Positions 3,531-63,245 are shown, numbered from the stretch's first letter. The stretch: DNA of 64,000 nucleotides from Patescibacteria group bacterium (GCA_041662625.1 JBAZSB010000001.1:617385-681384); one strand, 5' to 3'. Numbers and translations: made by a program. The notes: generated from the sequence alone by a model not told the origin.

Positions 3531-3607
3531 TGGTGGACAATGCTGGACTCGAACCAGCGACCTTCGCGATGTGAACGCGACGCTCTAACCAGCTGAGCTA
3601 ATTGTCC
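3531..3607 (-). tRNA. tRNA-Val (anticodon CAC)
   Basis: Minus strand GGACAATTAGCTCAGCTGGTTAGAGCGTCGCGTTCACATCGCGAAGGTCGCTGGTTCGAGTCCAGCATTGTCCACCA; cloverleaf with anticodon loop TTCACAT; CCA encoded. Confidence 0.85.
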
Positions 3608-13224: not shown

Positions 13225-13245
13225 ATTTAAAAAAACTTAACAAAC

Positions 13246-13273
13246 AAAAAACCCTCCATTAGGAGGATTTTTT
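13246..13273 (+). terminator. intrinsic terminator after mntP
   Basis: aaaaCCCTCCattaGGAGGatttttt. Confidence 0.75.
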
Positions 13274-13530
13274 GTAACCTACGCAAAGAGGAAAAATCAA
13301 TATATTGCCGCCATCGAATAGGAAACTACCGACAAAGCCAGATAGACTGGGAGTACTAGCGTGGCGGTCAAAACGGTAAATGTTCGGGAAATGTCAAAAT
13401 CGAAATCTGTTGGCTGCTCGCGAACTTGCGGTTGGATACATTCTTGCTTTTCCATACTTTTTGTTTTTATTTTTTAGATATCCCTCGCACAAAGCTTGGG
13501 CTGAAATTTTTAAGGAACAAAAGTTTTTTT

Positions 13531-13555
13531 GTCCCGACCTTTCGGGACTTTTTGT
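13531..13555. terminator. hairpin + U-tract (GTCCCGA palindrome family), bidirectional-looking
   Basis: tttttttGTCCCGAcctttCGGGACtttttg; A/T runs on both sides. Confidence 0.5.
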
Positions 13556-13820
13556 TTTTGCGCCCGTCAATTGTCTTAGGGCATGGTCTCACCAAAAGCC
13601 CCGAGCGACTGGCTTCAAAATAAGCTAAAGGGAGTCGAGGGGCGGAGGCGGACAATTTAAAAAGATAGGTCTTGGGCCTATCTGTATCATCTATAACCAG
13701 TATAGCATACCTAGCAATAAAAGTCAAGCGGAACGGGCGAAATTTTAATTAAATATTATAATATTTTAATATTAAAATTGATTCAATATTAAAAATTAGA
13801 AATTGAAAATTAACTAAAAT

Positions 13821-13882
13821 GCGGCTGAAAGAGAGATGAACCCTGAAACCATGTTGATGCTAGGGTTCTCCTTTCAGACCGC
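13821..13882. other. long near-perfect hairpin (about 21 bp stem with 2 mismatches) in a 1.3 kb non-coding region
   Basis: GCGGCTGAAAGAGAGatgAACCCTgaaaccatgttgatgctAGGGTTCTCCTTTCAGACCGC. Confidence 0.5.
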
Positions 13883-14596
13883 AGAATTATGATAGCAAAT
13901 CTAACTTTATTTGGCAATAAAATATGTATGTATATAATTTGACCCGGACCTGTAAATTACCAGATCCGGGGGTGGACAAGGTTCGTTCTGCGTCAGCGAA
14001 GAGCCTTCCGAATAATGGACTTTTTGTTCGTGGCGGTATGCATCTACTAAAATTGCTACGAGTTGTAGTCGCTAGCAAACTACCATAGCTAATTCCTTCG
14101 ACACAGTGACCGGGCGTTGCCTCTCGTACACCAAACGAATTGTCACGCCGAAGTAGTTAAGAGAGGATTAACCTCTCCCCGAGGGCCCTTCGGCCAACCC
14201 TCAGCTAGTCGACAGCTTCTTCATGAGATGGATCCTCCGTGCGATTGGGGTTGCGGTTAAACTACACTACATTTGTCTTGCCAGCTCTGCCGCTGTTCCG
14301 TATTGACTTTACTGATGCAGTCTAGCGAGCAAACCTGACTTATTAATATTACACATTTTTCGAAAAAAGTCAAGGATTTGCTAAAAATATTGTGGCTATT
14401 TCACTTAAATAAATTTCAGATTTTAAGATAATAAAGTTTCAAGATAAAAAGAAAACACCCCAAGTAAAACCAAGGGTGTTTTCCGGTTTCTAGGATTATT
14501 CCTAGCATCAATATCGGCATCTTAGCACAGATTTATCAACTTGTCAAGGCTTAATAAAAAGAGTAGGCTAAAAATAGACAAAGTAACATAAATAAT

Positions 14597-15640
14597 ATGG
14601 CTAAAAAATCTATGGCTAGAAGATTAAAAACTCTAACTAAAAGTAAGGTCAGCCCCAAAATTATTGCCGGGGTTATTGTTTTAATTGGCTTAATCGGCCT
14701 ATCTTTTGTTGGCTCTTCACTGCTAAGCACCTTTAATATTGCTATCACCAATACTAATGATAGTTCCAAGGGCGGCAGCACCAACGAACCCGGTTTAGTC
14801 GCCTATTATCGGTTTGATGAAGGCTCAGGTAATACAGCTACTGATAAAATTATCCAAAACAACGGCACAATTTACGGGGCTCAATGGACTGATAATGCTA
14901 TTTCAGGCAAAGCTTTAAATTTTGTTGGTGCTAATAATTATGTTGAGGTTCCTCATCATGATGTTTTAAATCTGACTGATGTGATTACGATTTCAGTCTG
15001 GATAAAATTGAACAAAACTGTGGCTGAACAAACTTATCAATACATGATTGTCAATAAATCAAACTGGACTGGTAAAGATGGCTTCCAACTTGTCTTTAAT
15101 AAACCTTATTCTAATAATTTAATTTTCAGGATCCTGTATGAAAATACTTTTAAAGATGCAGCTTGGGATGCCTCCAGTCTCAAAAAAAATATTTGGTATC
15201 ATCTTGTCGGCACTTATGACAAAAAATTTATTAAACTCTTTGTTGATGGCCAACTCAAAGCAATTGTAAGTCTAAGTAAGCCAATTGATATTACCACTAA
15301 CAAACTGTATATTGGCAACCCAGGAGCAGATTATTTTAATGGCAGCATTGATGAAGTAAAAATCTACGGTAAAACTCTAACTGATGATGAAATTTCTGCT
15401 GCCTACCTGAATACTCGCTGTAAAAGAGATAACATTGACCCTAGTAACATAACCGGCGCCCAGCATAATATGATAGTAAATTTCCCTGCTAATTTAACAA
15501 CGGCAGAAATAAATGGGATCTTGAGCGCTTATCCCTGGATGAATCCTTATAATTTAAACGCCTGCGATAAAATATTTTTGATTCAAAACGTGAATAATTC
15601 TTTCACTGATCCAGCTTTTGCTCCAATCTTTACTTATTAA
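14597..15640 (+). CDS. membrane-anchored secreted protein with LamG / concanavalin-A-like lectin domain
   Basis: N-terminal anchor MAKKSMARRLKTLTKSKVSPKIIAGVIVLIGLIGLSFVGSSLLS; LamG hallmarks (LVAYYRFDEGSG...GKALNFVG.NYVEVPHH...ITISVWIK...WYHLVGTYD...LFVDGQL...DEVKIY...LTDDEI). Confidence 0.8.
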   Translation: MAKKSMARRLKTLTKSKVSPKIIAGVIVLIGLIGLSFVGSSLLSTFNIAITNTNDSSKGGSTNEPGLVAYYRFDEGSGNTATDKIIQNNGTIYGAQWTDNAISGKALNFVGANNYVEVPHHDVLNLTDVITISVWIKLNKTVAEQTYQYMIVNKSNWTGKDGFQLVFNKPYSNNLIFRILYENTFKDAAWDASSLKKNIWYHLVGTYDKKFIKLFVDGQLKAIVSLSKPIDITTNKLYIGNPGADYFNGSIDEVKIYGKTLTDDEISAAYLNTRCKRDNIDPSNITGAQHNMIVNFPANLTTAEINGILSAYPWMNPYNLNACDKIFLIQNVNNSFTDPAFAPIFTY

Positions 15641-15652
15641 TACCTAAAAGAT

Positions 15653-16990
15653 ATGAATAAAAAAATACTTTTGTATCTAACCATTATTCTACTAGTTTTA
15701 GGCTCAGTAACCATTCTAAGTTACCCCGTATTGGCTAGACGCGCCGGCACTCAATACTATTTTAAAGCTGAAACTGGTTTCCCTTGTGGCGGGCTTTGTA
15801 CTGCCCAGGGCATACGCCCTCTTGGTTCAGAGGCTGGTTGTTCTTATGAATGTAAACCTGATTTTACACCTTTATGTTCAGATAACACTAACCCGAATTG
15901 GCCTTATGTTGATTATACAGTTGTTTGCACATTAAAAGCCGACTGCGGCTGTGACATAAAAGATCCTCATTGCGCTTCAGAATCGCAACACTGCGAGGAG
16001 AATGAAATAAGTTCTGAATTCACACCACCGGCCGATAACCCAGATGCTTTACCTTGTGGTGGCCATTCTTGTTGTCAAATTGCTTCAACCAGATCGTACA
16101 CCCAATGTATTGCTTGTACTCAGGAATTTAAAAATGGTCAGCTAATAGATATAAATGAGTGCGTCAAGGCAGAAGAATGTGGTGATCCTTGTTTGCAATG
16201 TCCGCCAGCCCATTGTGTTGTGCTTGACGCCAATAAAACCGGCCGTGATGTCGGCTACAAGTGTGTTCCTGATGAACCTACCCAGAAAAGCGCAGCAGGG
16301 GGCAGTAGCTACAGCGGATCCCCGGATGGTATTAAAACCAGTGATCTCGATGATAGCAGTATAACGGATGAAAATGGAAATGTTACCCCCTATCCTAAAT
16401 GCAAAAAGTGCAATAAAATTACTGAAATTGAATGTGAAGGCACACTAGGTAACTGGTGCTGCAAAAAAGGAAAAGAAACTTGCGGTGAAAAACCTCTGGC
16501 CGGATTAGGAACTAAAATTAAGGCTTGTGACCCTATCAGTTGCCCGACCGGTAATTACCCATCAGAGAACACCGTTAAATGCAATGGCGATGGCGAAGCG
16601 GCAGCGGCAATTTGTTGTAAACCAAATCCTGATGGTTCTAGCCCTTGCGGTAAAATTACAGTAACAAAACGAAGTCCCTTGCCACCATTTAAGATGATGA
16701 CTGTCACTGTTCCCACTTGCGTGCCTCCCGGTGATTGCAATTCTTCCTCAGAAGGCTATTGTGGTACTACTACTGATGGCAAGGCTGTTTGTTGTAAAGC
16801 CTCAGAAAATCAAAAATGTGTTCAGGTGGACGGGAAAAATCAACCAGCTTGCCAACCTTCAAGTTGTCCTTCTGGTCAAGTAAAATGTACCGGCAAAATT
16901 GAAGAGGCTGGACATACATCAACAGTCAGCATCTGCTGTAAGGCTTGTGGTGATCGTCACCCTAATGGTGCACCTTCCTGTGCTGATTAA
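15653..16990 (+). CDS. secreted cysteine-rich repeat protein
   Basis: 445 aa; N-terminal signal/TM, roughly 60 Cys in CxC / CC / CxxC patterns (…CCKPNPDGSSPCGK…, …ICCKACGDRHPNGAPSCAD). Confidence 0.6.
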   Translation: MNKKILLYLTIILLVLGSVTILSYPVLARRAGTQYYFKAETGFPCGGLCTAQGIRPLGSEAGCSYECKPDFTPLCSDNTNPNWPYVDYTVVCTLKADCGCDIKDPHCASESQHCEENEISSEFTPPADNPDALPCGGHSCCQIASTRSYTQCIACTQEFKNGQLIDINECVKAEECGDPCLQCPPAHCVVLDANKTGRDVGYKCVPDEPTQKSAAGGSSYSGSPDGIKTSDLDDSSITDENGNVTPYPKCKKCNKITEIECEGTLGNWCCKKGKETCGEKPLAGLGTKIKACDPISCPTGNYPSENTVKCNGDGEAAAAICCKPNPDGSSPCGKITVTKRSPLPPFKMMTVTVPTCVPPGDCNSSSEGYCGTTTDGKAVCCKASENQKCVQVDGKNQPACQPSSCPSGQVKCTGKIEEAGHTSTVSICCKACGDRHPNGAPSCAD

Positions 16991-17013
16991 TAAACAAAAT
17001 ATAAATTAAAAGA

Positions 17014-17043
17014 AACAGCCGTCACGACTTGCTGACGGCTGTC
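17014..17043. terminator. bidirectional hairpin between convergent genes
   Basis: CAGCCGTCAcgacttgcTGACGGCTG 9-bp stem; separates the 15653 gene (+) from the 17022 gene (-). Confidence 0.55.
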
Positions 17044-17384
17044 ATAATAGCGCTCGATCGAACATCCAGCTCGGCAAGCTGGTCGATGATCGCCATGAGA
17101 AACACCTCGTCTCTCGGGGTCAATGCGTGGGCATCGATCCACGGGAAAGCTTGAATCAACTCATCATAGCGATTCACAAAGTGTTCCTTGTCTTGCTGGA
17201 ACTGCGCGAGCAGCTGCTGCTGCTCAGCAGTTAGGTTGCTGGGATCAATTTCCCGCCACCCCTGGTAGGCTTGCTGCAACTCTAGGTTGCCTTTCAAAGC
17301 CTGCTTCACAGGAGTACTAGCGCAACCAGCGCCAACAACCAGTAATATCACCAGCCAAAGAGCAGTAGTCTGTTTCATTCTCAT
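17022..17384 (-). CDS. GC-rich lipoprotein of unknown function (Gram-negative-type lipobox), likely horizontally acquired
   Basis: SD GGAGGA 5 nt upstream of ATG (MRMKQTTALWLVILLVVGAGCAS...); lipobox VGAGC; locally GC-rich relative to the flanks. Confidence 0.55.
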   Translation of the reverse strand: MRMKQTTALWLVILLVVGAGCASTPVKQALKGNLELQQAYQGWREIDPSNLTAEQQQLLAQFQQDKEHFVNRYDELIQAFPWIDAHALTPRDEVFLMAIIDQLAELDVRSSAIMTAVSKS

Positions 17385-17462
17385 GTCCTCCACCCCGAAA
17401 ACGGGGTTAGCTTTTCAACCTGGTTTTATTCCTAAATTATACAATACCATAAATTTATCCTC

Positions 17463-18122
17463 TTGTCAAGCACATTTTCCAATGCTATAATTGCCTTGAT
17501 GAAAGAAAAAATCACAAAGGTAATTTTGATTAGTTTGGGAATTTTTTTTATTGCCTTTGGCACTTTTGCCATGGACTTTGGTATTTACCGCGGCAAACCC
17601 GGCTGGTTGCTCTGGCTCTGCTATTGGGGCATGGTCATTATCGGCTTTGGCATTTTAACTAAAAATGGCTATCTCATTTTAAGCCAAATAAATATTTTAA
17701 CTATTCCCCTGCTCTTTTGGAACATCGACTTTACTCATTATCTTGCAACCGGCAAAGACCTTTGGGGCATTACCGATTATTTCTTTGGCGAGATGCTAAA
17801 GACTGCCCGCTTCATCAGTTTCGAACATCTTTTTTTATTACCCCTAACACTTCTGGCGCTTTATTTAATTAAGATTAATAAAAAAGGCGCCTGGAAACTC
17901 AGTCTGGCGCAACTCGCCCTGTTTTTTGTCTTAAGCCGGCTTTTCACTAATCCCGAACATAATGTCAATTGCGTTTTTGTTTCTTGCTACCCGTTTTTTC
18001 CTACTGATAGCTGGCATCCCTTAAGATGGTTTTTGGTTTATGGCGCCATGATTTTGTTTACTTATTGGATCATAAGCGTTATGCCACTTTTTAAAAAGAA
18101 AATTGCTAAAAAAAATCAATGA
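17463..18122 (+). CDS. polytopic membrane protein, unknown function
   Basis: 219 aa with about 6 hydrophobic helices; start may be the internal Met (MKEKITKV...). Confidence 0.45.
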   Translation: MSSTFSNAIIALMKEKITKVILISLGIFFIAFGTFAMDFGIYRGKPGWLLWLCYWGMVIIGFGILTKNGYLILSQINILTIPLLFWNIDFTHYLATGKDLWGITDYFFGEMLKTARFISFEHLFLLPLTLLALYLIKINKKGAWKLSLAQLALFFVLSRLFTNPEHNVNCVFVSCYPFFPTDSWHPLRWFLVYGAMILFTYWIISVMPLFKKKIAKKNQ

Positions 18123-18160
18123 GCCTATAATAAAATTAGCCAATAATTAACCAAAACTTT

Positions 18161-20293
18161 ATGAAACTTCGACTTTTTTCCAAAAAACCTATGGCAAAAA
18201 AACTTCAAACAATCACTAAAACCAAAATTAACCCCAAAGTCTTAGCCGGGGTTATTATTTTAGTTGGCTTAATCGGCTTATCTTTCATTGGAACATCGCT
18301 CTTAAGCACAGGCGTCACTTTAGTTAACTCCAATACTAATGTTAACGACAACTCTAAACCAAAAATTGACCTTTGCAAGGCTCATAACGGAACCAATGAT
18401 TTAATCGCTTGGTATAAATTAGATAGTGCTGTAGATAATGTTACCCAAGACTATTCGGGGAATAATTTTGGGGGCATTGCTTCAGGCACTCCGGCTTTCG
18501 CCCCAGGCATTCCTGGCCAAGGTTGTCAGTTTGATGGCATCAATGATTATATTGCCCTGACATTTAAATATTGCGGCGGCAAACACTTAATTAATGGTTT
18601 AACCACTTGTGCTTGGTTCAGCACAACGGAAAAAACTGGCGTCAATTTTGATAATTGGGCTTTTATTGATTTTGATCGCACTCAATACTTCAGTTTTTTT
18701 GTCACGCCAACTGGTAAAATTGGTTTTTCTACCCACTCAGCTTCCAATAATAATTCAACCAATGACTTTTACAGCACCGTTAATGAAGAAGCTCCCGCTT
18801 TAAATGATGGCCAAGTTCATTTCGCTTGTGCGGTTTATAACCAAGGGACTAAATTAATTTATATTGATGGTAAAAAAAATGCCCAAACCTATGCTCATGC
18901 TGGCAAACCATTAGAAGGTACGGCTGACCGCTGGGGCTTCATCGGTGATGGCTCCCAAGCCACGGGGGCGGATGGTCTGCGATATAATAAATATTTTAAA
19001 GGGATGATTAATGAGGTCAGACTTTACGAAAAAGCTTTATCGGAAGATGACGTCAGATCACTTTATAAAGAAGTAATGATACCTACCTTAGATCCTTCTG
19101 GCCAGGTTAATAATAAATGTTCAGTCAGTCCAATCGATTCTGCCCAATGTTATACGGCAATTGATAGCGCCTGCACCAGCCAAACCATAAAACCAAAAGA
19201 TAGTTGCATCGAAACCTTTATTAATATTTATTTGGGTGATGATGCCGCTGCTAATAATGTCGCCGCCCTTGATCCCGAAGGTATTGGCGCCCCCTGGCCG
19301 CCTTTAGGTGATGATTTAATAGTAAAATACTGTATTTCAAACTTAAATTATACTCGAGCTAACCGGCCACTTTGTAAAAAGAATTTAGGCGGACTAGACT
19401 CATCAATCTTTGAAATAACTAGTAATGTTACTTTAATCAATAGTGCCCTAGCTAATTTAGGCTTGGGAGGAGCCAAATCAGGTGGCGCTTGTAGCTATAG
19501 TAGCTGTAATGACTGCAAAAGTTTAGGAACAGCTCTAGCTCAGGCGGCAGCCAGTTGCTCAAGTGGCGGTAGTTGCCCCAGTGATAAGGTAAAAAGTAAT
19601 TGTTCTGGGGATAAATATGTACTTTGTACTTTTGATGGTGGTTGGAGTGAATCAATGAAACTATCTGATTGCCAAGCTAAAAACCCGATAATATATTGCC
19701 CAATAACCCCAACTTGTCCAAGCACTGAAAAGTGTGATTGTAATTGGTTAGACCCTACGTACATAAAAGCTTCGCGATTTAGTTGCGCTCCTATTTTTAA
19801 AAAAGAAAATACCCAGTGCGGAGCAGCAAATGTTGCCGGTTCGGATGAACTTGTATGTAAACTAGGCTATGCCTTATGTTTCTTACCATCAGGTATGAGT
19901 CTAGCATCGGGTGCTCATGCTGGCGGCAATGCAGTGGATATATATGTTAGCGGCACAACTGCTCAAGATAAAATTCATCTTGGCCGCCAATTTCTCTATA
20001 ATATTGGACCTTCTGTCACGACTGAATTTTTCAAAAAACTAAGGGCTTTAAGCGAATTAATGCCCTGCGAGATTAAAGGATTAGGCGCAATAACTCCAGC
20101 AGAAAGAGTTCCAATGGTTCATCTTGATGTCCGCCAAAATAGAGGCTGCGTTTTCTATAATGTCACTTCCAAAACAAATCCCGCTGCTTGGGCTGGCAAA
20201 TGCGTTGAGGGCAGCTATCCCGAACTATTTTACAAATTTCCGCCTCAATCTCAAATAGATGCTGAAATAAAAAGTTGCGGCAACTACTATTAG
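18161..20293 (+). CDS. membrane-anchored LamG-domain protein fused to a C-terminal Cys-rich domain
   Basis: N-terminal anchor MAKKLQTITKTKINPKVLAGVIILVGLIGLSFIGTSLLS (paralogous to the 14597 gene); LamG block (LIAWYKLDS...GQGCQFDGINDYIAL...VHFACAVYN...LIYIDGK...INEVRLYEKALSEDDV); C-terminal about 350 aa Cys-rich. Confidence 0.8.
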   Translation: MKLRLFSKKPMAKKLQTITKTKINPKVLAGVIILVGLIGLSFIGTSLLSTGVTLVNSNTNVNDNSKPKIDLCKAHNGTNDLIAWYKLDSAVDNVTQDYSGNNFGGIASGTPAFAPGIPGQGCQFDGINDYIALTFKYCGGKHLINGLTTCAWFSTTEKTGVNFDNWAFIDFDRTQYFSFFVTPTGKIGFSTHSASNNNSTNDFYSTVNEEAPALNDGQVHFACAVYNQGTKLIYIDGKKNAQTYAHAGKPLEGTADRWGFIGDGSQATGADGLRYNKYFKGMINEVRLYEKALSEDDVRSLYKEVMIPTLDPSGQVNNKCSVSPIDSAQCYTAIDSACTSQTIKPKDSCIETFINIYLGDDAAANNVAALDPEGIGAPWPPLGDDLIVKYCISNLNYTRANRPLCKKNLGGLDSSIFEITSNVTLINSALANLGLGGAKSGGACSYSSCNDCKSLGTALAQAAASCSSGGSCPSDKVKSNCSGDKYVLCTFDGGWSESMKLSDCQAKNPIIYCPITPTCPSTEKCDCNWLDPTYIKASRFSCAPIFKKENTQCGAANVAGSDELVCKLGYALCFLPSGMSLASGAHAGGNAVDIYVSGTTAQDKIHLGRQFLYNIGPSVTTEFFKKLRALSELMPCEIKGLGAITPAERVPMVHLDVRQNRGCVFYNVTSKTNPAAWAGKCVEGSYPELFYKFPPQSQIDAEIKSCGNYY

Positions 20294-20318
20294 CATCTCA
20301 ATTAGCTCAATAAATAAA

Positions 20319-20365
20319 TGAGACCCCTGCGCTTACTGAACTACTTCAGCGCAGGGGTCTTTTCG
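20319..20365. terminator. strong bidirectional terminator
   Basis: GAGACCCCTGCGCttactgaactacttcaGCGCAGGGGTCTTTTCG; 13-bp stem. Confidence 0.8.
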
Positions 20366-20375
20366 CCTGAGGAAC

Positions 20376-20882
20376 CTACGGGTTGATCACAACATCGTGC
20401 AACCACCCCGAAGTGATCATCCTTTGCAGCCCGGTGACAAGGGCTGCGCGGTTGGCCTTCAGTGGCCGGAATGAAACGACCGTATATTGGTCGAACATCC
20501 GGCCTGCCCAGACAATGCCATTGAACGAAAGCTCGTCCACGCGCATTGCTTGCCAACCGGTGCCAAGGGCTCTGACCTGATCGAGTTGGATGTCGTCCAA
20601 CCCGTTGTTAATCAGGAGATACACCCTGCCATTACTGGCAAAAGCATACCAGTAGCTCTCAGCGTCTTCGCCCATATTCGGCGTGACAACCATCTGACCG
20701 TGGGCGATCTCTTTGGCATCGGCGAGCTCGCGGGTGCCCTTCTCACACTGATGAACAAACATCTCTCCGCGGGAGATGTTGCTTTCGGAGTAGACGCTAG
20801 GAAACTGATCTTGCGTCAACTTCGTCGTTGTCTGACACCCTGCCAGACAAGTCAGTGCTACTAAAAGTGCTATCTGCTTCAT
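20376..20882 (-). CDS. GC-rich lipoprotein of unknown function (lipobox LAGC), likely horizontally acquired
   Basis: SD GAGGAG then ATG: MKQIALLVALTCLAGCQTTTKL...; GC-rich relative to flanks; the ORF track gives a longer N-extension (to 20936). Confidence 0.55.
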   Translation of the reverse strand: MKQIALLVALTCLAGCQTTTKLTQDQFPSVYSESNISRGEMFVHQCEKGTRELADAKEIAHGQMVVTPNMGEDAESYWYAFASNGRVYLLINNGLDDIQLDQVRALGTGWQAMRVDELSFNGIVWAGRMFDQYTVVSFRPLKANRAALVTGLQRMITSGWLHDVVINP

Positions 20883-21037
20883 TTCTTGCTCCTCTAGCGG
20901 TTCAAAACCGCTTGTAGAATACAGTAATTCCGACAATTCCTGAATTTATCATTATACAATATTTTAAAAAATTTGTCAATATTAAAACAAAAAATACCCA
21001 ACAATTTAGCTTATTTTAGATATTTTTAATTAGTTAC

Positions 21038-26012: not shown

Positions 26013-26096
26013 TGAGTTATTAGCCCGGGTGGCGGAATTGGTAGACGCGCACGACTCAAAATCGTGTGGACTTCGGTCCATGAGAGTTCGATTCTC
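26013..26096 (+). tRNA. tRNA-Leu (anticodon CAA)
   Basis: GCCCGGGTGGCGGAATTGGTAGACGCGCACGACTCAAAATCGTGTGGACTTCGGTCCATGAGAGTTCGATTCTCTCCTCGGGCA; long variable arm; no CCA. Confidence 0.85.
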
Positions 26097-26173
26097 TCCT
26101 CGGGCATAAATTGACACCTTTGACACCTAGCGAAAAATGGATTATCATAAGGAAGTTAATTACTTATATTCGA

Positions 26174-26248
26174 CGCGGGATAGAGCAGTAGCAGCTCGCC
26201 AGGCCCATAACCTGGAGGTCGGGGGTGCAAATCCCCCTCCCGCAACCA
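26174..26248 (+). tRNA. initiator tRNA-fMet (anticodon CAT)
   Basis: CGCGGGATAGAGCAGTAGCAGCTCGCCAGGCCCATAACCTGGAGGTCGGGGGTGCAAATCCCCCTCCCGCAACCA; C1:A72 mismatch and A11:U24 typical of bacterial initiators; 3' end ...CCCGCAACCA like E. coli tRNAfMet. Confidence 0.8.
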
Positions 26249-26275
26249 AGAAGTATTTTAGATAATTCAATGAGA

Positions 26276-26404
26276 CCAGGCCCATAACCTGGAGGTCGGG
26301 GGTGTCCCGACGCACATTATTTGTAATATTAATAAAGAAGTCGGGATCCCGATGATATTTAGAAATAAATTAAGGAATCGGGACAAATCCCCCTCCCGCA
26401 ACCA
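26276..26404 (+). pseudogene. partial duplicate of tRNA-fMet (anticodon stem to 3' end) carrying an ~80-nt structured insertion in the T-loop
   Basis: ccaggcccataacctggaggtcgggggtg [tcccgacgcaca...gtcgggatcccgat...aatcgggac] aaatccccctcccgcaacca; no 5' acceptor or D-arm upstream; insertion bounded by GTCCCGAC / ATCGGGAC inverted repeats. Confidence 0.7.
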
Positions 26405-26405
26405 A

Positions 26406-26482
26406 GGCGAGGTAGCTCAGTTGGTTAGAGCGAAGGAATCATAACCCTTAGGTCGTGGGTTCGACTCCCACCCTCGCTACCA
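26406..26482 (+). tRNA. elongator tRNA with CAT anticodon (tRNA-Met or tRNA-Ile2/lysidine)
   Basis: GGCGAGGTAGCTCAGTTGGTTAGAGCGAAGGAATCATAACCCTTAGGTCGTGGGTTCGACTCCCACCCTCGCTACCA; G1-U72, CCA encoded. Confidence 0.8.
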
Positions 26483-31133: not shown

Positions 31134-34100
31134 TTACCCAAAGATACTTTTTTCTGGCGGCGGAGCAGCAGATTTTTTATCTTCTGGTTTTTCTTGAGTC
31201 TTACTAACCTTGGCCTCTGGCTTAATCTCTTCGATTTTTTCTAATTTTTCTTCAATATTTTCGCCAATATCTTTGACTTTTTCTTCGAGTTTTTCTAGCT
31301 CTTCAATTTTATCGGTAATTTCTTCTTCAACTTCTTTGACCTCTTTTTTAGCTTTGATTAACTCTTCCAGTGATTTACGACCAACTTCTAAATCTTCAAC
31401 TTTTTCGGTCAATGACGGTTCAGTGACTGGTTTTTCCACTGGTGGTACTGCCGGAGGAACCACTGGATGTGCCTCAATCACTTTAGCTGGTAGGCCAATT
31501 TTATCACTTGGCGGCGCAACCGGTGGCAGGGGCGGTGTTACTACTGGCGGTGTAATACTTGGCAGCGCTTCTGTAACTCCACCTTTCTTTAAACCGATAT
31601 TGAGTCCAACGATTGCCTCCTTAGCCTTGGCGATTAAATCAATTGCCTCAGTCTTATGAGGCTCATACCCCAATTTTTCAGCAGTCACATAATAGACATT
31701 ATTATTAACCAAGAAGGAATAGCGCCCCCGCGCATCAGTTAAACGGGTTTCCAAAAGCTTGTTATACTGCTTGTCATAAATCCGGGTGATCGCGCGAGCC
31801 AATGGCTTTTTATTATTTTGATCATAAATAATACCCCAGTTCTTCGGCGGTTTTTGATAACCCAGCCGGCGGAATAAAACATAAAGTAAACAATGGAAGC
31901 CAAACATCGTAAAGGTTAAAAATCCCGGACTAATTATCATGGAGACAGTAGCTAAAGGAACTGCTGAAAATGCTGCGGCGTATTGGACTTTGCGTAAATA
32001 ATATTGAAAGATGATTTTTTTAACTGGTTTAGTGTCTTCTTGGGGATCGAGAGGAATATTGGCCGTGATTTCTGCTTTTTGATTCGTCACCTCAATTGTT
32101 TCACCATGATATAAATCAAGAAATTTTACATCTTCTTTTTTATCTTTGAGGTATCGCGTGGGGAAATCAAATTTTGGTTTAGTCACACTTAAATAATAAC
32201 GACCCGGTTCAGCCAAAATTAAATAACGGCCCAGCTTATCAGTGACTCGCGATTGTATCAAGCGATTGTTCTCTTTCTGATATAATCTCACGATTGCTAA
32301 ATCAACTGGCTGCTTGGTCAAAGAATTATAAACCACGCCCCATTTCTTTCGTTTACGCCTAAATAAAGCGGCAAAGGGCTGGGTAATAAAAAATTGTAAG
32401 TAGGAAAGGAAATTAAAAAAGGAAAAAGTAGCGAAAGTATTAATTGCCACAGTAGCAATCAAAATTGGAGCGGCAATCCGATTAGTTTGTTCAACCTGGG
32501 GGTTATCTAATATTTTATCTTGCAAGAATGCTTGAACATTTTTAATAACTTCGGCAAAATTTAATTCACTATTATCAGTTGGCTTGGTACAACCCGGATC
32601 AGCCGGAAAATCAATTAAGCCATCTCTATCATTATCCAAACCATCCAGACATTGGGTCAGCAAAAATCGAAAGTTCGGCGGCAAACCACAGTCAACTGGG
32701 CAAGACCAGACTGTCTCAGCCTCTTCACAAATATTATTGCCACAACAGGGAACAGTAGCTAAACAGCGGCAAGCGGCTAAATCAATTAGTTGGCAGGTGC
32801 TGCAAGCCACTTCACAACCTTCAGTACAAGAACGGGTTTCTGGGGGCCGATCCAAGTTCAAATTACAATTGTTAATGTCATAACATTCCCGCCTTTGAAT
32901 ACCAGCAACACATGCGCCCCAGTTTAAACAAGTCCAATTGGGCGTACAGGGCAAAATACAATCCTGGGGACATTGCTCATGAGTTTCCCCTTGTTCGCAC
33001 TGACCATTACCGCAACAAGGTATCAACTCCTGGCAAACACACTGCTCAATATTAATTTGTTCACAAGTACCACAACTTAAACCGGGACAATTAGGGCCAC
33101 AGCTTTGTTGTAGCGCCGGCGGATTAATGGGCACGGGGCAGGCATTACGGTCGAAACATTCTCGGGTTTGAATCCCATTTAATGGACAAGGGTCTGGCTG
33201 CCAGTCAGTGCATTCCCAATCTGATAAACAATCAACCGGACAATCCACATGGCAAGTGTAGGGATCTTCGGCTGGCGGCTCACAAACATCATTACCACAA
33301 CAATTGACAGTATTTGTACAAGTACAAGTGGCTTCATCAAGCTCCTGACAATCGCCACAAGTCACTCCCGGACAGACACCACAATCTTGTTCATAGTCAT
33401 AATCGGCTTCGCAAGGCGGGATTGTTTGGTCAACGCAAGCTACGGTTTGTTTATTGGTTACTGGATTACAATCTCCGGGGGTACATAAAAAATCCGGCTC
33501 ACAAGCACATTCGGGGTCGCCCGGCTGCGAAGTGTCAGTACAAGTTGAAGCTGGATAGTCACAAAAACCATCACTATCATCATCAATCTGATTATCACAA
33601 ATCTCAACTCCGCCACTAGTCTGAAAGGAACCAGTGGCAACTGTTTGTAGGCTTCCGGCATTAGCGGTAATCCGATAATAATAAACCGTGCTGGGGGTTA
33701 AATTGGTAATATTATGGCTGTAATTCTGCCCGGACAAACTGGCTGAGCCTTCATTAACATCAGTGGTCATCCCCCATTCCAGCAAGGACGAAGTTGATTG
33801 GCAGCGCGTCCGCCAGCCAATAGTGGCAGTCGTGTTGGTAACTGATTCACTGATATTATCAATTAATAACTCATTTTTGCAGTCAGCCGAACAGCAATCG
33901 CCAGAAGTAATATTATTGTCATCACATTCTTCAGTTACTGGATCAAGGCTGCCATCGCCACAACCAACTTCTAATTGGCAGGTGGCTGAGCAACCATCAC
34001 CAGAAACAGTATTGCCATCATCACATTCTTCACCTGGATCTTTGATGTTATTGCCGCAGACCGGAACATAGCAATCTTGGTTAAATTTATTAGTAGTACA

Positions 34101-39413: not shown

Positions 39414-39802
39414 GGGGATGTCTAAAATCGATAGGATCTAGATTTAAAGTCCTCAGGTCGAGCATTGGTCTACTTGGCTCGCTAATCTCAATGACCAAAC
39501 AAATAAGTGCCAAATCACTTGTCGCTAAGGTAAAAAGTGCTTTCAGCTCTTTAGCCTTAGCTCCCGCTTTGGCCTAAAAACCCAGAGCCATCAGCCCGGT
39601 GATGCCTAATAGCCGGTCCCTGGTGTCAATAATTAGGCTGCCGCAAGTTAATGCCTCATTGATTTGCATAAGCACTTGAGGCTTTGGCTTTTGGGGTTTT
39701 GTCAGTTTTTGACCCAAAGGCCGAAAATAAAAATTGACTAAACCTGTAAAACTATTTTGAATCTAATTCTAGACAGGGGTGCAAATCCCCTCATCTCCAC
39801 CA
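39414..39802 (+). ncRNA. ssrA: tmRNA (ssrA)
   Basis: 5' GGGGATG... pairs with 3' ...CATCTCC-A-CCA giving G3:U70 (Ala identity); T-arm GGGG-TGCAAAT-CCCC; internal tag frame ...AFSSLALAPALA-TAA ending 39577; immediately downstream of smpB. Confidence 0.8.
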
Positions 39803-41197: not shown

Positions 41198-41244
41198 GGA
41201 GGCGTACCCGCCCGCTTCGCGTTCGGGCAAGGCTCAGTTGGTTA
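41198..41244 (+). pseudogene. tRNA-Asp 5' fragment (acceptor 5' strand + D-loop) interrupted by a GC hairpin insertion
   Basis: GGAGGCGTA [cccgcccgcttcgcgttcgggcaag] GCTCAGTTGGTTA then diverges; preceded by ttccacagc, which is the reverse complement of gctgtggaa at 41686-41694. Confidence 0.6.
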
Positions 41245-41271
41245 TCTCTTTAAAAAAATAAAGTGCAAAAC

Positions 41272-41345
41272 GGAGGCGTAGCTCAGTTGGTTAGAGCGTC
41301 TGCCTGTCACGCAGAAGGTCGTGGGTTCGAGCCCCATCGTCTCCG
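41272..41345 (+). tRNA. tRNA-Asp (anticodon GTC)
   Basis: GGAGGCGTAGCTCAGTTGGTTAGAGCGTCTGCCTGTCACGCAGAAGGTCGTGGGTTCGAGCCCCATCGTCTCCG; flanked by aaagtgcaaaa / ctttgcacttt inverted extension; no CCA. Confidence 0.85.
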
Positions 41346-41395
41346 CTTTGCACTTTATTTTTTATTATCCAAAAGCCAATTATAAAATTAGGGGG

Positions 41396-41510
41396 GTCAC
41401 GCAGATTTACCCGCCGTAGCGCAAGCATAGGCGGGAGGTCGTGGGTTCTGCGCCACCTTAATTAATAAAAAAGGCGCACCAGCCTCTGGCTGGGAGCCCC
41501 ATCGTCTCCG
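41396..41510 (+). pseudogene. tRNA-Asp 3'-half copy with two GC-hairpin insertions (after anticodon stem and in T-loop)
   Basis: GTCACGCAGA [tttaCCCGCCgtagcgcaagcataGGCGGG] AGGTCGTGGGTTC [TGCGCCaccttaattaataaaaaaGGCGCAccagcctctggctgg] GAGCCCCATCGTCTCCG + ctttgcactttatttttt. Confidence 0.6.
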
Positions 41511-44065: not shown

Positions 44066-44740
44066 TCAGTCCGGACAGCACATCGGGAACGTTTGCCCCG
44101 GAAAGTGTTCCTCGTTCCAGGACCAGCCCCCTGCTTCCTCCTTGCCTAAAACCTCAGGCGGTTTTTCGCAATTCCATTTGGTGCGTGCCTGCTCGCGATC
44201 ACCCATAATGGTAATACAAGTTGCATCGGAACAGTAGAAACAGCCAACTTCGTCGCCTGGTATAGCTATTTCCTCAATTCCAATACTGCCACATGCAGGA
44301 CAGTAACCATAGCGATCGTCCTGGAACCACTCGTCTTCCCGAACGACCTTGTCCGACCCGACGGTCCGCGGAAAAGGCAACATCGCCGTCACTTGCCTCA
44401 GTATTTCTTGCATTTCGTCGGGCGTCAAGCCCCGTTTTTCGACCGAAACATCGCCCCAACGATAGATTCGACTACTGGACCAGGTGATGATCTTAATCGC
44501 CGGATTTTTCGCCCTGATCGCCTGGGCAATTTTGGCGCCATCGTTTCCTGAACTATCCCCCAGCGTGAGGTTACCATCGACTATCGCAACATGGATCTTC
44601 AGGGAATCCAATTGATCCACGATTGCCAATGCTGCCTCCAATGTTTCCGCTTCGGTAACGGAGTGACCTGCCCCTTCCAGCCCCCGCTTTACGATTCTGC
44701 GGCCGCTGGGTCTGTCTTCGACCAAAAATACATTCGCCAC
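44066..44740 (-). CDS. GC-rich response-regulator receiver (REC) domain protein with C-terminal Cys-rich zinc-ribbon-like domain; likely horizontally acquired
   Basis: SD GAGGAGG then GTG; VFLVEDRPSGRRIVKRGLEGAGHSVTEAETLEAALAIV...IHVAIVDGNL...KIITWSS (CheY-like D/D/K); C-terminus CPACG...CFYCSDATC...WNCEKPP...PMCCPD; GC-rich relative to the flanks. Confidence 0.6.
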   Translation of the reverse strand: MANVFLVEDRPSGRRIVKRGLEGAGHSVTEAETLEAALAIVDQLDSLKIHVAIVDGNLTLGDSSGNDGAKIAQAIRAKNPAIKIITWSSSRIYRWGDVSVEKRGLTPDEMQEILRQVTAMLPFPRTVGSDKVVREDEWFQDDRYGYCPACGSIGIEEIAIPGDEVGCFYCSDATCITIMGDREQARTKWNCEKPPEVLGKEEAGGWSWNEEHFPGQTFPMCCPD

Positions 44741-54099: not shown

Positions 54100-54444
54100 T
54101 TATTTCATCTGTCGGGTCAGTCCCCACAGTATCCGGACCAGTTTCCATGGTCCGATCTTTGCGAATAGCTTCCAATCAATTGGAGCTACTCCTTCCCTCG
54201 CTGTCGTCCGGTCGCCGCAAACAGCGACAAAGACCGGGAACAATACCGGTAGAAAAGCAGGGCAGACTCTGATCGTACCCCAAAACAAGTGGGGTAACAG
54301 ACTATCAAAACCTACCTTGCGGCTGTCGTTGGTAGGCAATGGGATTGCCTGCTCAAGCTCTCTGATGATCTCGCTTCTCCTCTGCTGACCACAGCCGGTC
54401 TTTGCTGCTTCATTCAGTAATGACATAACTCTCGCCGGTTTCAT
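54100..54444 (-). CDS. GC-rich 114-codon ORF with strong SD in the CDF leader; may be spurious if the region is a regulatory RNA
   Basis: ctaaacAGGAGGagtcgtcaATGAAACCGGCG...; GC-rich; contains two 24-nt direct repeats (gatactg[c/t]ggggactgacccgaca) at its 3' end. Confidence 0.25.
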   Translation of the reverse strand: MKPARVMSLLNEAAKTGCGQQRRSEIIRELEQAIPLPTNDSRKVGFDSLLPHLFWGTIRVCPAFLPVLFPVFVAVCGDRTTAREGVAPIDWKLFAKIGPWKLVRILWGLTRQMK

Positions 54445-59442: not shown

Positions 59443-60825
59443 CTACTCCTTCGGCGGTGTCATCTTGACACCCATTCCGTAGAAGCCTTCTCGAAGCACC
59501 CCGACAATCTCGTCGAGTTTCTCCGAGTTCTTCGCGTTGACGTCAGCGTTGGCCTGGTTGGCTTTCGCATTCGCCTGGTTGGCATCGGCCACGTCTTTGG
59601 TCACCTTGACCAACTGCTCCATCGACTGGGCCGTCCGGTCAAGCGAATTGCCCACTCTGTCCAGCGTGTTGGACACCAGCCCATTCGCGCGGGCCGGATC
59701 CAAGCCGGATACGCCGATTGCTCGACCGTGCGCGCTCATCAGCGCTTCAACCGCCTCATTGACTTCCGACCCATCTCCGTCGGCGATGGCCTTGTAGACC
59801 ATGCGGTCCCAATGGACGTTCCGAGAGCCAATGACTTCGAGTTCGCCGTGATTGTCAAGGTAGACTTTGGCATGAAGCCGGTTGTCTACAACCTGGGCTC
59901 CTTCGATGTCCTCCTTGGTCGCTGCTGCTTCGGTGGCCTTCTTGGCGGGCTCGTCCTTGGCGGCCTTGGCCACTTCCGTAGCCTGAGCCTTGGCCTTCGC
60001 GTCGTCGGACGCCGCCTCCTTGTGTCTGGACCACCCGAACACCAAGCCGATAGCCAGGACGAGACAGGCAGCCACGATCAGGAAGCCTCTGTTCAACCAG
60101 AACGGTATCCCGGTGGCGACGCCTCCGTCTGCTGTCGGCTCGGGCCGATTGCGGTCCCGACGCGGCTGGCGTTCCTCGCGCGGCCGAAAGGGAAGATCCT
60201 CGTGTCCCCGCGGCTGGCGTTCCTCGTGTCCCCGACGTGACGGCGCTCTCCGACCACCGCGATCTTCCCGATCGCCAAGCGGTTCGAAGCCACCGTCCGG
60301 ATCGAAGCCACCGCCTCCATCGACGTCCGGATTAAACTCCGAACCGCCTTCGACTGGTTGCCCCGACGGAACAATGGTCGGGATCTCGAAACCGCCCTCG
60401 TCAGGATCCCCGCCACTTGTTGCAGCGGAGAAAAGCGGCGGCGGGGTTCGGCCGGCGGCAACGGGCCCTTCTTCATCCAGGCTGAGACGATTCTCATCAA
60501 GGAAGAGCGGGGGCGGGGTGGTGCCGACGGGCTGCTTGCCTTCTTCGGGGACATCTGCCAGCGGCACAAATCCGAACTGCTGATCTTCTTCCGCACCGGC
60601 AGTCGGAAAGGCTGTGCCAGCGGCAGCAGGAATTCCCGGTGCGGCTCCCCTCAATGCCTCGACGAAGGCTACTCCTGCCGGATCGGCACGAAAGTGTTCT
60701 TGATCGTCCGCTTGGAACAGGGCATCGAGATCACTCTGACCCATCCCGGACTCACTCCGTGCGTCGGTCACTTCTTGCCCCGGACCGGCTTCGGGATCTT
60801 TTGCTCCACTCGTGTTCTCGTCCAT
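59443..60825 (-). CDS. GC-rich single-pass membrane protein with disordered acidic/Pro-rich cytoplasmic N-region and extracytoplasmic C-domain
   Basis: 460 aa; TM at about 237-260 (GFLIVAACLVLAIGLVFGW); internal nucleotide repeats (cgcggctggcgttcctcg x2) encoding EERQPRGHE / REERQPRRD. Confidence 0.5.
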   Translation of the reverse strand: MDENTSGAKDPEAGPGQEVTDARSESGMGQSDLDALFQADDQEHFRADPAGVAFVEALRGAAPGIPAAAGTAFPTAGAEEDQQFGFVPLADVPEEGKQPVGTTPPPLFLDENRLSLDEEGPVAAGRTPPPLFSAATSGGDPDEGGFEIPTIVPSGQPVEGGSEFNPDVDGGGGFDPDGGFEPLGDREDRGGRRAPSRRGHEERQPRGHEDLPFRPREERQPRRDRNRPEPTADGGVATGIPFWLNRGFLIVAACLVLAIGLVFGWSRHKEAASDDAKAKAQATEVAKAAKDEPAKKATEAAATKEDIEGAQVVDNRLHAKVYLDNHGELEVIGSRNVHWDRMVYKAIADGDGSEVNEAVEALMSAHGRAIGVSGLDPARANGLVSNTLDRVGNSLDRTAQSMEQLVKVTKDVADANQANAKANQANADVNAKNSEKLDEIVGVLREGFYGMGVKMTPPKE

Positions 60826-60858
60826 TACTCGACACTCCTTCTTGTAAGGCGGCTGGAT

Positions 60859-62082
60859 TCAGCCAACCGCCGGCCTGATTTCAACGTTCACTTCACTGCC
60901 ATTCACTACCATCAACCCAAGAGGGGCTTCCGGCCGATTCGTCTCTTCGAACACCAGGTTACTTTCCCATTTGCCGCTCTCCCCCTGGTGGATTTCATGG
61001 AGAGCGACTGCCCCAAACGATCCCTGCCGAACTTGAATCTTTCGGTAATCTTTGGGTAGCTTGTCGAAGACTACCTTGAACCGATCACCCTGATCGGCGA
61101 TTACCTTGGACCAGGTCCAACTGTCGAGGTCGTCGGGGTTGCCCGGCTTCACTGTCACCGTGTCCGTCTTCGGATGCGGCTTGGTGGGCCAGGTCGCCTT
61201 GGCAATGCTGGAACTGGTAGGAGCAGCAGCTACCTTCTCTTTGCTCGCAGGCAAAATTTGAGGTGGCTCTTCTTTTGGCGTTGCCGGTGGGCTCACCGAT
61301 GCGGCCAAATTGGGCTGCTCAACTACCTTCTGAATGGTATCAAATCGGATTTCTCCGCGCTTTACCAACCAGACACCATTCGAATCTGGTTGATACTGCT
61401 CGATCGGGACCATGTTAGCGGACATCCCGGTCTTGCCAGTCAAGCGAAAACTGGCATAAAGCGGCAGGTCGGGCCGAATCTCGAAAGTCGGGTCAACGAT
61501 CCACTTCCAGACCTTCTTCTTCTCACCCGACTGTTCGTCCACAACCTCTTCGATTACATTCCGATAGACCGGCGGGGTAACCTTGGGATCCCGGACGAAT
61601 TCGCCCGTTGTCTCATCCTTACGGAAGAACGGCTTGAGCTCCACGAGCTCGAAATCCGTCATCCCAGCCTGGATGAGTTCGAGCCGCTTTCCTGCCTGGT
61701 CGATATCCAAGAGGTCACCTGACATCTTGTCTGACGACGCAGCCAACGGATTACGGCCGGAAGTCAAACCGACCTTCTGCGACATTACTTGCAGTCGCGT
61801 TGGGCCAGTTCTGACCTCACTACTGACTTCGACTCCCAGATCCAGATTGGGTATACCGGGAAGGTTCACTTCCGGCACCTGCTGATCCAGGAGCGGCACG
61901 AGCAGCAGGAATGGCGTCGCCAAACAGGCCAACACCAACCATTTGCGTGCCCGCGTCTTCCAGAACAGTACAACCGCTACTGCCACCACCGCCATAATAG
62001 CCCCGGCCAAAGTGGTCAACCACCAAGCCAGAACCAAAACGGCTGCCAAAACGATGAATCGCCATATCCAGAACATGCTCAT
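60859..62082 (-). CDS. GC-rich membrane protein (two N-terminal TM) of unknown function
   Basis: 407 aa; ATGA overlap with the upstream gene, suggesting translational coupling. Confidence 0.5.
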   Translation of the reverse strand: MSMFWIWRFIVLAAVLVLAWWLTTLAGAIMAVVAVAVVLFWKTRARKWLVLACLATPFLLLVPLLDQQVPEVNLPGIPNLDLGVEVSSEVRTGPTRLQVMSQKVGLTSGRNPLAASSDKMSGDLLDIDQAGKRLELIQAGMTDFELVELKPFFRKDETTGEFVRDPKVTPPVYRNVIEEVVDEQSGEKKKVWKWIVDPTFEIRPDLPLYASFRLTGKTGMSANMVPIEQYQPDSNGVWLVKRGEIRFDTIQKVVEQPNLAASVSPPATPKEEPPQILPASKEKVAAAPTSSSIAKATWPTKPHPKTDTVTVKPGNPDDLDSWTWSKVIADQGDRFKVVFDKLPKDYRKIQVRQGSFGAVALHEIHQGESGKWESNLVFEETNRPEAPLGLMVVNGSEVNVEIRPAVG

Positions 62083-63245
62083 TCTCCTCGTCTCTTCCTA
62101 CCACCCGTCCCGCGGGTGGGTTTACTCGTTGGAATTTCTGTCTCTTCTGCGTCTTCAGCCACCTTCTCCTTACCACCGGCCTTGGCCCCAGACGAATCAA
62201 CACCGCCAAAGTCCAAGGTTACGGTTGGAAAACGGAGACCACCTTTCCCTGCTGCCAAGGTGTTTTGTAATCCCTCGGCAACCGGAAGAAAGATATTCCA
62301 CGGTGACTCGTCCGGCATCCCAGCGCCTTTCCTTAGGCTCTCCAATGCCTTACCGCGCTGAACTGCAGCCCGCGCACCCAACTCCGACTCGGTCACATGG
62401 GCCATTCCTGCCAGAACTTTTTCCAGAGGAAAGATGTTCTGGAAGCCAATGACTACCCTGATACCGAATCGTCCGATGTCGGGAACTTCCTCTTCAACGC
62501 CGCCGTTCATAATCTTGGTCGCGGCGTCGGCGAGTTGCATTAGTTCTCCCGCGTGGGCGATCTCAACTAACTCCACATCGGAGTAACCCGTTGTGACGTA
62601 GTTGATCGCGACTGACATAGCCTGAAGGATTACATCTTTCGATTTCCCCTTCAGGACGACAGCCCAGAGGATGGGATCAATCACTTCATACATCACGGTA
62701 GGATCCACATCAACCGGATTCGTTCTGGTGTTGGTCCGCACCCTCTTGGCATCAAGGCCTTGGGTTCGCATATCAACGACCTGAACTTCTACCCACAACA
62801 ATTCCGGCAGAACGATCATCTGCCAACCCTGACGCAAGTCTTGGTAGCTTCTCGCGTCCGAGGTATCATCACTTGGAGAAAATGAATTTCGTACCACCCA
62901 CGAAAACTTCTGGGGGATGTTACGAATTTCCACTAACCCAAGGATGACAATCCTCGTCATCAGGATCGGCTTACCGATTTCTTCATCCCGGCCGACTTCC
63001 TTCTTCTCCCAGAGGAAAAGAGGAACTCCTTGCTTCTGGCAGAACCACCGCCAGAAAAGGATTGCGCCACCAATCAGCGGCACAGCCACAGCGACAGTTA
63101 CCTTTGGGTTTTCACTCCACCCGAGGATAAACAGTGTCACTGCCAGCGCTAGCAGAACCAGCGCCTTGATCACTACCATTGCCAGTCTCATGTGTTTCGC
63201 TCCTTTCCAGAGTATCTCCAGGTCCCAAAGGACCTTACGTTGCAT
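62079..63245 (-). CDS. GC-rich SPFH / band-7 (stomatin/HflK-C-like) domain membrane protein
   Basis: N-terminal TM, then SPFH-like core (…ILMTRIVILGLVEIRNIPQKF…VDMRTQGLD…DVILQAMSVAINYVTTGYSDVELVEIAHAGELMQLADAATKIM…). Confidence 0.5.
   Translation of the reverse strand: MQRKVLWDLEILWKGAKHMRLAMVVIKALVLLALAVTLFILGWSENPKVTVAVAVPLIGGAILFWRWFCQKQGVPLFLWEKKEVGRDEEIGKPILMTRIVILGLVEIRNIPQKFSWVVRNSFSPSDDTSDARSYQDLRQGWQMIVLPELLWVEVQVVDMRTQGLDAKRVRTNTRTNPVDVDPTVMYEVIDPILWAVVLKGKSKDVILQAMSVAINYVTTGYSDVELVEIAHAGELMQLADAATKIMNGGVEEEVPDIGRFGIRVVIGFQNIFPLEKVLAGMAHVTESELGARAAVQRGKALESLRKGAGMPDESPWNIFLPVAEGLQNTLAAGKGGLRFPTVTLDFGGVDSSGAKAGGKEKVAEDAEETEIPTSKPTRGTGGRKRRGE

Follow-up and report, generated by a model that had tools for sequence, protein, structure and literature searches.

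Two small, GC-rich genes for predicted lipoproteins lie among AT-rich genes in a 64,000-nucleotide stretch of DNA from a Patescibacteria group bacterium (GCA_041662625.1 JBAZSB010000001.1:617385-681384; this whole stretch is called the window hereafter), and they raise the question of where such genes came from and what they do. Patescibacteria spend their lives attached to other microbes, and no part of this lifestyle is less well understood than their surface proteins. The two genes, here named gene A (17022-17378) and gene B (20376-20882), are both on the minus strand, each next to a gene for a LamG-domain or Cys-rich protein. The original prediction regarded them as products of repeated small-scale horizontal acquisition with a proteobacterial look. 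The window is from a Patescibacteria genome (Candidate Phyla Radiation, CPR), and the reading favoured here, with a probability of about 0.55, is that genes A and B belong to a class of laterally derived accessory surface genes in which gene B is an old partner of the neighbouring LamG gene.

A discrete class of GC-rich genes

Genes A and B have GC contents of 52.7% and 54.2%, compared with 39.9% for window positions 1-59000. Their GC contents at third codon positions (GC3), 0.62 and 0.66, lie above the range of the 49 native genes (0.24-0.49, 0.372±0.057). Recoding the same proteins with host codons gave an expected GC3 of 0.40 for A and 0.42 for B (z = 4.9 and 7.1), so the excess is synonymous and not an effect of amino-acid composition. 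The two genes are thus locally GC-rich, as had been proposed, although their LamG and Cys-rich neighbours, described as AT-rich, proved ordinary for this genome (40.5% and 44% GC).

The same character extends to a class of seven of the 56 window genes, formed by A, B, 44066-44740, 54100-54444 and the three genes of 59443-63245, with GC3 values of 0.55-0.67 (z = 2.9 to 12.3 over the host-recoded expectation). A codon model of the class, trained on 59443-63245 only, was compared with a leave-one-out host model; the log-likelihood ratio (LLR) was positive for 7/7 GC-rich genes (+0.11 to +0.35 bits/codon) and negative for 49/49 others (-0.16 to -0.55). Correlations of codon fractions were 0.74-0.81 inside the class versus 0.34-0.52 with the host. 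The earlier grouping of A and B with these islands therefore describes a real and discrete class, with no overlap in codon LLR. The split is not an expression effect, since ribosomal protein L20 has native-type codons (LLR -0.38), and translational selection was rejected as the cause of the class on this ground and because AAG, GAG and CAG are preferred besides C-ending codons, a combination that indicates a global GC shift. Structured RNA was also rejected as the cause, as the Rfam and ARAGORN matches (tmRNA, five tRNAs) lie elsewhere. The signature of the class is estimated to be that of a genome of roughly 55-57% GC that uses Shine-Dalgarno (SD) sites.

The SD sites separate the class from the native genes as well. 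Any four-nucleotide SD core was found in 6/7 class genes versus 6/49 natives (Fisher p = 1.8e-4), and the separation was sharper for five-nucleotide cores (Fisher p = 3e-5), with GGAGG or AGGAG in only one of the 49 natives. In about a dozen natives, 2-13 nt separate a TATAAT-like -10 box from the start codon that follows it (for example 12670, 46381, 50662 and 54567 on the plus strand, and 25949 and 63887 on the minus strand), so that many of them look leaderless, and the window genome looks largely leaderless or SD-independent. Consensus SDs had been noted at both genes, and GGAGG (A) and GAGGAG (B) were confirmed; as such sites are atypical for this genome, they constitute a second independent foreign-type mark of the class, and the earlier remark gains weight. 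The contrast between native genes and GC-rich genes with SDs is also relevant to how genes are called, and their start sites predicted, in CPR genomes.

The two lipoprotein genes and their LamG neighbours

Genes A and B are each a single-gene transcription unit with its own sigma-70-type promoter, leader hairpin, SD and strong terminator, and both are genuine genes for predicted lipoproteins. A lipobox was accepted when the pattern [LVI][ASTVI][GAS]C occurred near residues 15-25 together with a basic n-region and a hydrophobic h-region. Gene B (WC675_03155 at NCBI, on a 922-kb contig) encodes a predicted lipoprotein of 168 amino acids with the signal peptide MKQIALLVALTCLAG, followed by the lipobox Cys; its N-terminus shows K2, the stretch IALLVALTC and the canonical lipobox L-A-G-C16. 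The SD GAGGAG (20889..20894) is 6 nt 5' of the ATG. A leader stem-loop at 20896..20912, with a 7-bp stem (AGCGGTT/AACCGCT; z -2.6), stands 1-3 nt 5' of the SD, and the promoter (20951..20979) is a perfect TTGACA-17-TATAAT with 12/12 matches, all on the minus strand. This promoter sits in AT-rich DNA outside the GC-rich segment.

Gene A (WC675_03140 at NCBI; identified by open reading frame, ORF, and translation) encodes a predicted lipoprotein of 118 amino acids, with the signal peptide MKQTTALWLVILLVVGAG before the lipobox Cys and a mature part of about 97 amino acids. It had been placed at 17022-17384; the ORF on the minus strand stands, but ATG 17378 is the better choice of start. The GGAGG at 17391-17387 is 8 nt from ATG 17378 and merely 2 nt from 17384, and NCBI also starts the gene at 17378. 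This SD (17387..17391, minus strand) was read from the sequence and from the survey of upstream regions. The N-terminus has K2, the hydrophobic stretch ALWLVILLVV and G-A-G-C19, the signal peptide ending in VGAGC; with Gly at position -3, the lipobox fits a relaxed (PROSITE-type) pattern only. The promoter region (17435..17469, minus strand) holds TTGACA-17-TATTGT overlapping an extended -10 box, TGTATAAT. Adjoining the SD is a leader stem-loop with a 6-bp GC stem (17392..17407, minus strand), which when folded alone is not significant versus shuffles and which reads terminator-like on the plus strand. SD-adjoining hairpins thus occur in gene A and in 54100-54444 as in gene B, each statistically weak by itself, and such a hairpin may be a functional leader element. 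The intrinsic terminator of gene A (17014..17043, minus strand) consists of an 11-bp stem followed by UUCUUUUAAUU (dG -19.1, z -5.2); the last residues of the protein are encoded by its 5' arm, and the stop codon lies within its 3' arm.

Like classical Lgt/LspA lipoproteins, A and B have a basic N-terminal residue, a hydrophobic core and the lipobox Cys at residues 16-19. The organism is presumably monoderm-like, so the rules of outer-membrane sorting would not apply to them. The lipobox style had been taken as a proteobacterial mark, a point that did not hold, as native AT-rich genes also have lipoboxes of the LAGC and LSGC types, for example a leucine-rich repeat (LRR) lipoprotein with 36% GC (50662-51168) that carries ALSGC. 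This native protein suggests that a lipoprotein pathway is in use; neither lgt nor lspA was seen in those window proteins that were examined.

Neither A nor B has a Pfam match or a likeness to any named lipoprotein family, and the sole NCBIfam match of gene B, J517_1871, covers its signal peptide (residues 1-32) at 20.6 bits versus a cut-off of 60. When 5.8 billion protein clusters were searched with a word filter, gene B had no homolog, and gene A matched only itself. HMMER, run in full over 1.84 billion representative proteins, retrieved three homologs of gene B, P0003 (43% identity, E 7e-33), P0004 (32%) and P0008 (30%), and a profile search with the four-member family gave no further members. 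Two giant proteins, P0005 and P0006, were tried as gene B homologs and rejected; such marginal matches are spurious because they are to ankyrin and YDG repeat proteins. The four proteins form a new small lipoprotein family whose contexts are Patescibacteria-type or uninformative only, and whose invariant residues include C46 (the single free Cys), W78 and W125. P0008 is without the lipobox Cys; on its 2-kb contig the neighbour is a 383-amino-acid protein without a LamG or Pfam match on record. The possibility that gene A is a diverged paralog of gene B was rejected, as the two are unrelated beyond the signal peptide. Single-sequence AlphaFold2 models were unusable for B (pLDDT 42) and generic for A (three-helical, pLDDT 70), the latter with no fold match in the PDB below E = 0.8.

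The neighbour of gene B, LamG710 (18161..20293, plus strand), is a membrane-anchored surface protein of 710 amino acids with a LamG domain (Laminin_G_3, PF13385, 2.5e-15) and a Cys-rich part, many of its cysteines being conserved. Its gene has native composition (GC3 0.315), lacks an SD and is convergent to gene B. The hairpin between them (20320..20362) has U-rich tails on both strands (dG -27.0/-27.4, z -4.6/-4.7) and is plausibly a bidirectional terminator common to gene B (minus) and the LamG gene (plus). Both bracketing terminators of the original prediction are indeed strong; their description as bidirectional plausibly holds for this one, whereas the hairpin at 17014-17043 has its U-tract on the minus strand only and is a proper terminator just for gene A.

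The same convergent arrangement recurs in relatives. P0003, on a 10-kb contig named L006, is convergent to a gene for a 737-amino-acid LamG protein, and P0004 is convergent to a gene for one of 702 amino acids, beyond which lies a truncated AAA gene; the window has a gene of the same kind on the other side of gene B. The L006 contig also holds an array of five VirB2-like pilin genes, which is a trait known from Patescibacteria (PMC12102498). Its LamG protein and LamG710 align over 710 columns (33% identity, E 2e-106), and the divergence between the window and L006 is similar for B (42% identity), LamG (33%) and the pilins (36-43%). The B/LamG pair has thus been kept together in three lineages (the window, L006 and P0004 contigs) despite rearranged surroundings. 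Gene B had been described as inserted, a view at odds with the retention of the convergent pair and its terminator in relatives at about 40% protein identity; the conserved arrangement points to gene B as an old, position-locked partner of LamG and not a recent insertion.

At the DNA level the B locus was compared with one relative, L006. The ortholog there has 52% GC and a GC3 of 0.652, the highest of the 11 contig genes, the LamG gene having the lowest (0.442). It is preceded by a GGAGG SD, whereas the L006 pilin, SBP and LamG genes are without a canonical SD core, and it also has a strong terminator. Its leader hairpin, CAGCTT-TGA-AAGCTG (L006:6299-6313), lies 4 nt 5' of the GGAGG, with a stem sequence unlike that of the window. 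Among identical residues of the two orthologs, 21 synonymous codons match versus 23.4±3.7 expected, so that these sites are saturated, and the codon usage of the L006 gene correlates better with its own background (r = 0.70) than with the window class (0.52). Two other small genes on this contig (L006:1847-2254 and L006:9471-9863) are GC-elevated and SD-led among SD-less natives and have no window homolog; one encodes a lipoprotein with LAGGC (48.6% GC), the other a protein of 130 amino acids (55% GC).

The C-terminal part of LamG710, about 240 amino acids (19583-20293), is the best conserved part of the protein in the comparison with L006:7088-7840 (42% identity, many invariant Cys). Its motif pair H-x-GGNAVD ... 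PMVHLDV resembles LAS/M15 zinc peptidases; Pfam and PDB searches did not support an M15/LAS peptidase, with no sequence match in either database even at E = 10. The LamG alignment, and then a degenerate DDLIVKYC pattern, were run against GTDB genomes and JGI metagenomes; the pattern gave 35 matches, all of them chance by local tblastn.

On this evidence, A and B would each be transcribed alone from a sigma-70-type promoter, giving transcripts with a leader of about 50-70 nt and a stem-loop beside a strong SD, which would end at the intrinsic terminator. The products would be exported by Sec, lipidated by Lgt on the lipobox Cys, cut by LspA and held on the outside of the cell membrane. Gene B would act at the cell surface together with the adhesin-like LamG protein, in a partner role of binding, anchoring or modulation and perhaps via its single invariant free cysteine, and B/LamG is a testable candidate pair for host attachment.

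In the window the LamG genes belong to two similar tandem modules. The first comprises a LamG paralog, LamG347 (14597..15640, plus strand), and a secreted Cys-rich protein of 445 amino acids (15653..16990, plus strand), whose gene is convergent to gene A. The second comprises a membrane protein and LamG710, in which LamG is fused to a Cys-rich C-terminal half, and is convergent to gene B. LamG347 and LamG710 are paralogs with 30% identity and near-identical N-terminal anchors; the 445-amino-acid protein has no detectable homology to the LamG710 C-terminus. The position of gene A behind this paralogous module of LamG and Cys-rich genes suggests that it probably has a role analogous to that of gene B; for gene A, no relative with matching neighbours was found.

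Origin of the GC-rich genes

Regarding the proposed repeated horizontal acquisition, the foreign-type composition and signals were upheld, but the hallmarks of a donor and of mobility were not found. Exact copies of both proteins occur in this genomic context only, in three samples, which indicates that no donor copy co-occurs in those samples. No match to A or B was obtained by tblastn against plasmids and phages, and IMG/VR scans with the B-family alignment, gene A, two proteins of 59443-63245 and the LamG C-terminus gave none that was confirmed. The flanks of A and B have no meaningful direct repeats and no tRNA nearby, and there is no integrase in the window. A proteobacterial origin found no support, as gene A is without a homolog in the clusters searched and none of the three homologs of gene B has a proteobacterial context. 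The best hits of gene B come only from the same CPR lineage, with similar GC in the L006 gene, an outcome that the original prediction had named as refuting it. The proteobacterial look is explained by GC content and SD sites, not by ancestry, a warning that a transfer judged by composition alone seems more recent than it is and is assigned to the wrong donor.

The class most likely consists of laterally derived accessory surface genes, and its source was probably the Patescibacteria gene pool or an unsampled donor, not Proteobacteria. An old transfer within the phylum is the leading reading, in line with most transfers into Patescibacteria: 83% of those detected had other Patescibacteria as their source, and as much as 13% of genome length has been attributed to horizontal gene transfer in this group (PMC12455944). 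The class resembles the transferred genes and small islands of that study in consisting of atypical accessory genes scattered in a genome of about 0.9 Mb, with a likely within-phylum source, and in amounting to about 10% of the window, inside the reported range. It differs from them in having no nameable donor, mobility genes or repeats, in the kept position of gene B and in its mode of translation start. The locus is a clean example of how large a share of a 0.9-Mb genome foreign-type accessory genes without a traceable donor can make up. Another resemblance is to phage morons and to the atypical genes of GeneMarkS-2 (PMC6028130), which stand singly between resident genes, carry a promoter and a terminator of their own and deviate in composition from the flanking DNA. 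Unlike morons, the class neither lies in a prophage nor matches PHROG or IMG/VR entries, and it is GC-richer than its host, whereas genes gained by lateral transfer tend to be AT-richer. Integron gene cassettes were considered and rejected, given the own promoters, the 3' hairpins with perfect stems and U-tracts, and the lack of an array or integrase in the window.

Several observations weigh against an old lateral origin. No class member shows a donor or mobility signature, whether integrase, repeats, phage or plasmid. Gene B is old yet un-ameliorated, with a GC3 of 0.66 in the window and 0.65 in L006 against backgrounds of 0.37 and about 0.52; the GC3 of a neutral old import should decay toward 0.37 in the window genome, as that of LamG has done. 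The persistent signature of gene B could reflect an old, GC-richer donor with partial amelioration, a maintained signature or replacement in place. In addition, the search with gene A was word-filtered only, and distant homologs could have been missed; L006 is the one relative behind the DNA comparison; and the functional link between B and LamG is drawn from adjacency, the genes being convergent and not co-transcribed.

The main rival to an old transfer is a maintained gene class, that is, a stable second class of genes kept by selection or by a biased process such as GC-biased gene conversion, and maybe constituting an expression regime for surface or host-interaction genes. This is possible but clearly less probable. 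It would account for the likeness of the B unit in two lineages (GC3 0.659/0.652, SD, hairpin, terminator and position) with saturated synonymous sites, for the high GC3 of B and the low GC3 of LamG in both genomes, and for the further GC-elevated, SD-led small genes in L006. However, no known force favours G-ending codons for Lys, Glu and Gln together with C-ending codons over seven unrelated proteins. Moreover, L20 uses native codons, the codons of the L006 ortholog are closer to its own background than to the window class, and the comparison covers two genomes only. More doubtful still is a genome with two classes side by side, an AT-rich majority of SD-less or leaderless genes and a GC-rich minority of SD-led, hairpin-bearing genes for exported or surface proteins kept by selection. 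It is suggested by the retention of GC3, SD, hairpin, terminator and position in the B unit despite the saturation; if true, host-interaction genes would have a translation-initiation and codon regime dedicated to them, and, more speculatively, the minority genes would be tuned to expression in the host cell.

A different and rather improbable proposal concerns function: gene B, and by analogy gene A, would be an immunity or inhibitor lipoprotein against a toxic or enzymatic C-terminal domain of the LamG/Cys-rich protein. Pairs of an adhesin or toxin with a cognate lipoprotein likewise have a small exported lipoprotein conserved beside a large surface protein with a conserved C-terminus, and both the retention of the B/LamG pairing in three lineages despite rearrangements and the strong conservation of the LamG C-terminal 240 residues are in line with it. 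Against it, this C-terminal domain has no Pfam or PDB sequence match to any enzyme, even at E = 10; the convergent, not co-transcribed arrangement of B and LamG is unusual among toxin-immunity pairs; and P0008 lacks the lipobox Cys and has a neighbour without a LamG match on record. Recent, repeated small acquisitions with a donor among the Proteobacteria or other diderms, perhaps the host cell, are very unlikely, and for gene B this explanation is largely refuted. The foreign-type GC3, codon usage and SDs would agree with such a donor, and 3 of about 130 transfer events into Patescibacteria came from Pseudomonadota (PMC12455944). Nevertheless, neither the HMMER scan for B nor the cluster search for A returned a non-CPR homolog, exact copies are found in the same CPR context only, gene B is syntenic in distant CPR relatives, and the lipobox type is native. 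An assembly chimera or contamination, in which GC-rich reads of another organism were joined into the CPR contig, has a negligible probability, even though composition shifts abruptly at gene boundaries. Contigs of ERZ27249449, SRR18595301 and SRR6484324, from MEGAHIT-style and Logan assemblies, span both junctions of A and of B at 100% identity, and the junctions of the 44066 and 59443-63245 islands are likewise found at 100% in other assemblies (SRR18595301 for 59443-63245). Since three samples, assembled independently, reproduce these junctions, a chimeric contig, the concern that had been raised for these points, is excluded; the boundaries also coincide with promoters and shared terminators, and the L006 ortholog has the same layout.

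Other members of the class and remaining features

Searches of Pfam, NCBIfam, PHROGs and PADLOC with all seven GC-rich genes returned only a REC match, two sub-threshold matches and the signal-peptide match of gene B. The REC domain (response-regulator receiver) is encoded by 44066..44740 (minus strand; GC3 0.58, SD GGAGG), a protein with a Cys-rich C-terminus; it is an orphan, without a kinase in its vicinity or an output domain that can be recognised. The gene at 54100..54444 (minus strand; GC3 0.55, SD GGAGG) encodes 114 amino acids with no family match and has its own promoter, hairpin and terminator. If a cation-efflux gene (52599-54095) is read as its longest ORF, this terminator falls within its opening 40 codons; the true start of that gene is probably an internal Met (MAKTNQ...) at about 53975. 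The block 59443..63245 (minus strand; 57% GC, GC3 0.58-0.67) comprises three genes without homologs, for membrane-associated or disordered proteins without an above-threshold Pfam family. The two below-threshold matches, a weak Zot-like PHROG and Chlorosome_CsmC in Pfam, both fall to 59443-60825, and the block adjoins a VirB2-like pilin gene (63486-63887) of the type IV secretion system. Each of the five GC-rich transcription units is read from the minus strand, compared with 31 plus and 18 minus for the natives ((18/49)^5 ~0.007).

A segment of 1.37 kb without a gene call (13225-14596) has a core of about 50% GC (~13935-14340) and no credible ORF. It had no Rfam match even at E = 1 and folds weakly (z -1.6, -1.25), and it may be what decay has left of a GC-rich class gene, or else an uncharacterised RNA. 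The window further contains a tmRNA gene (39414-39802) and five tRNA genes (3531-3607, 26023-26482, 41272-41346), and the remaining GC peaks, at 26176-26476 and 41201-41576, are due to tmRNA/tRNA genes. Finally, a surface protein of 1259 amino acids encoded at 31134-34913 combines PT-HINT, DUF4215, carboxypeptidase-regulatory-like and MG3-like domains; its gene has native composition, and the product looks like a protein of the polymorphic-toxin or giant-adhesin type.

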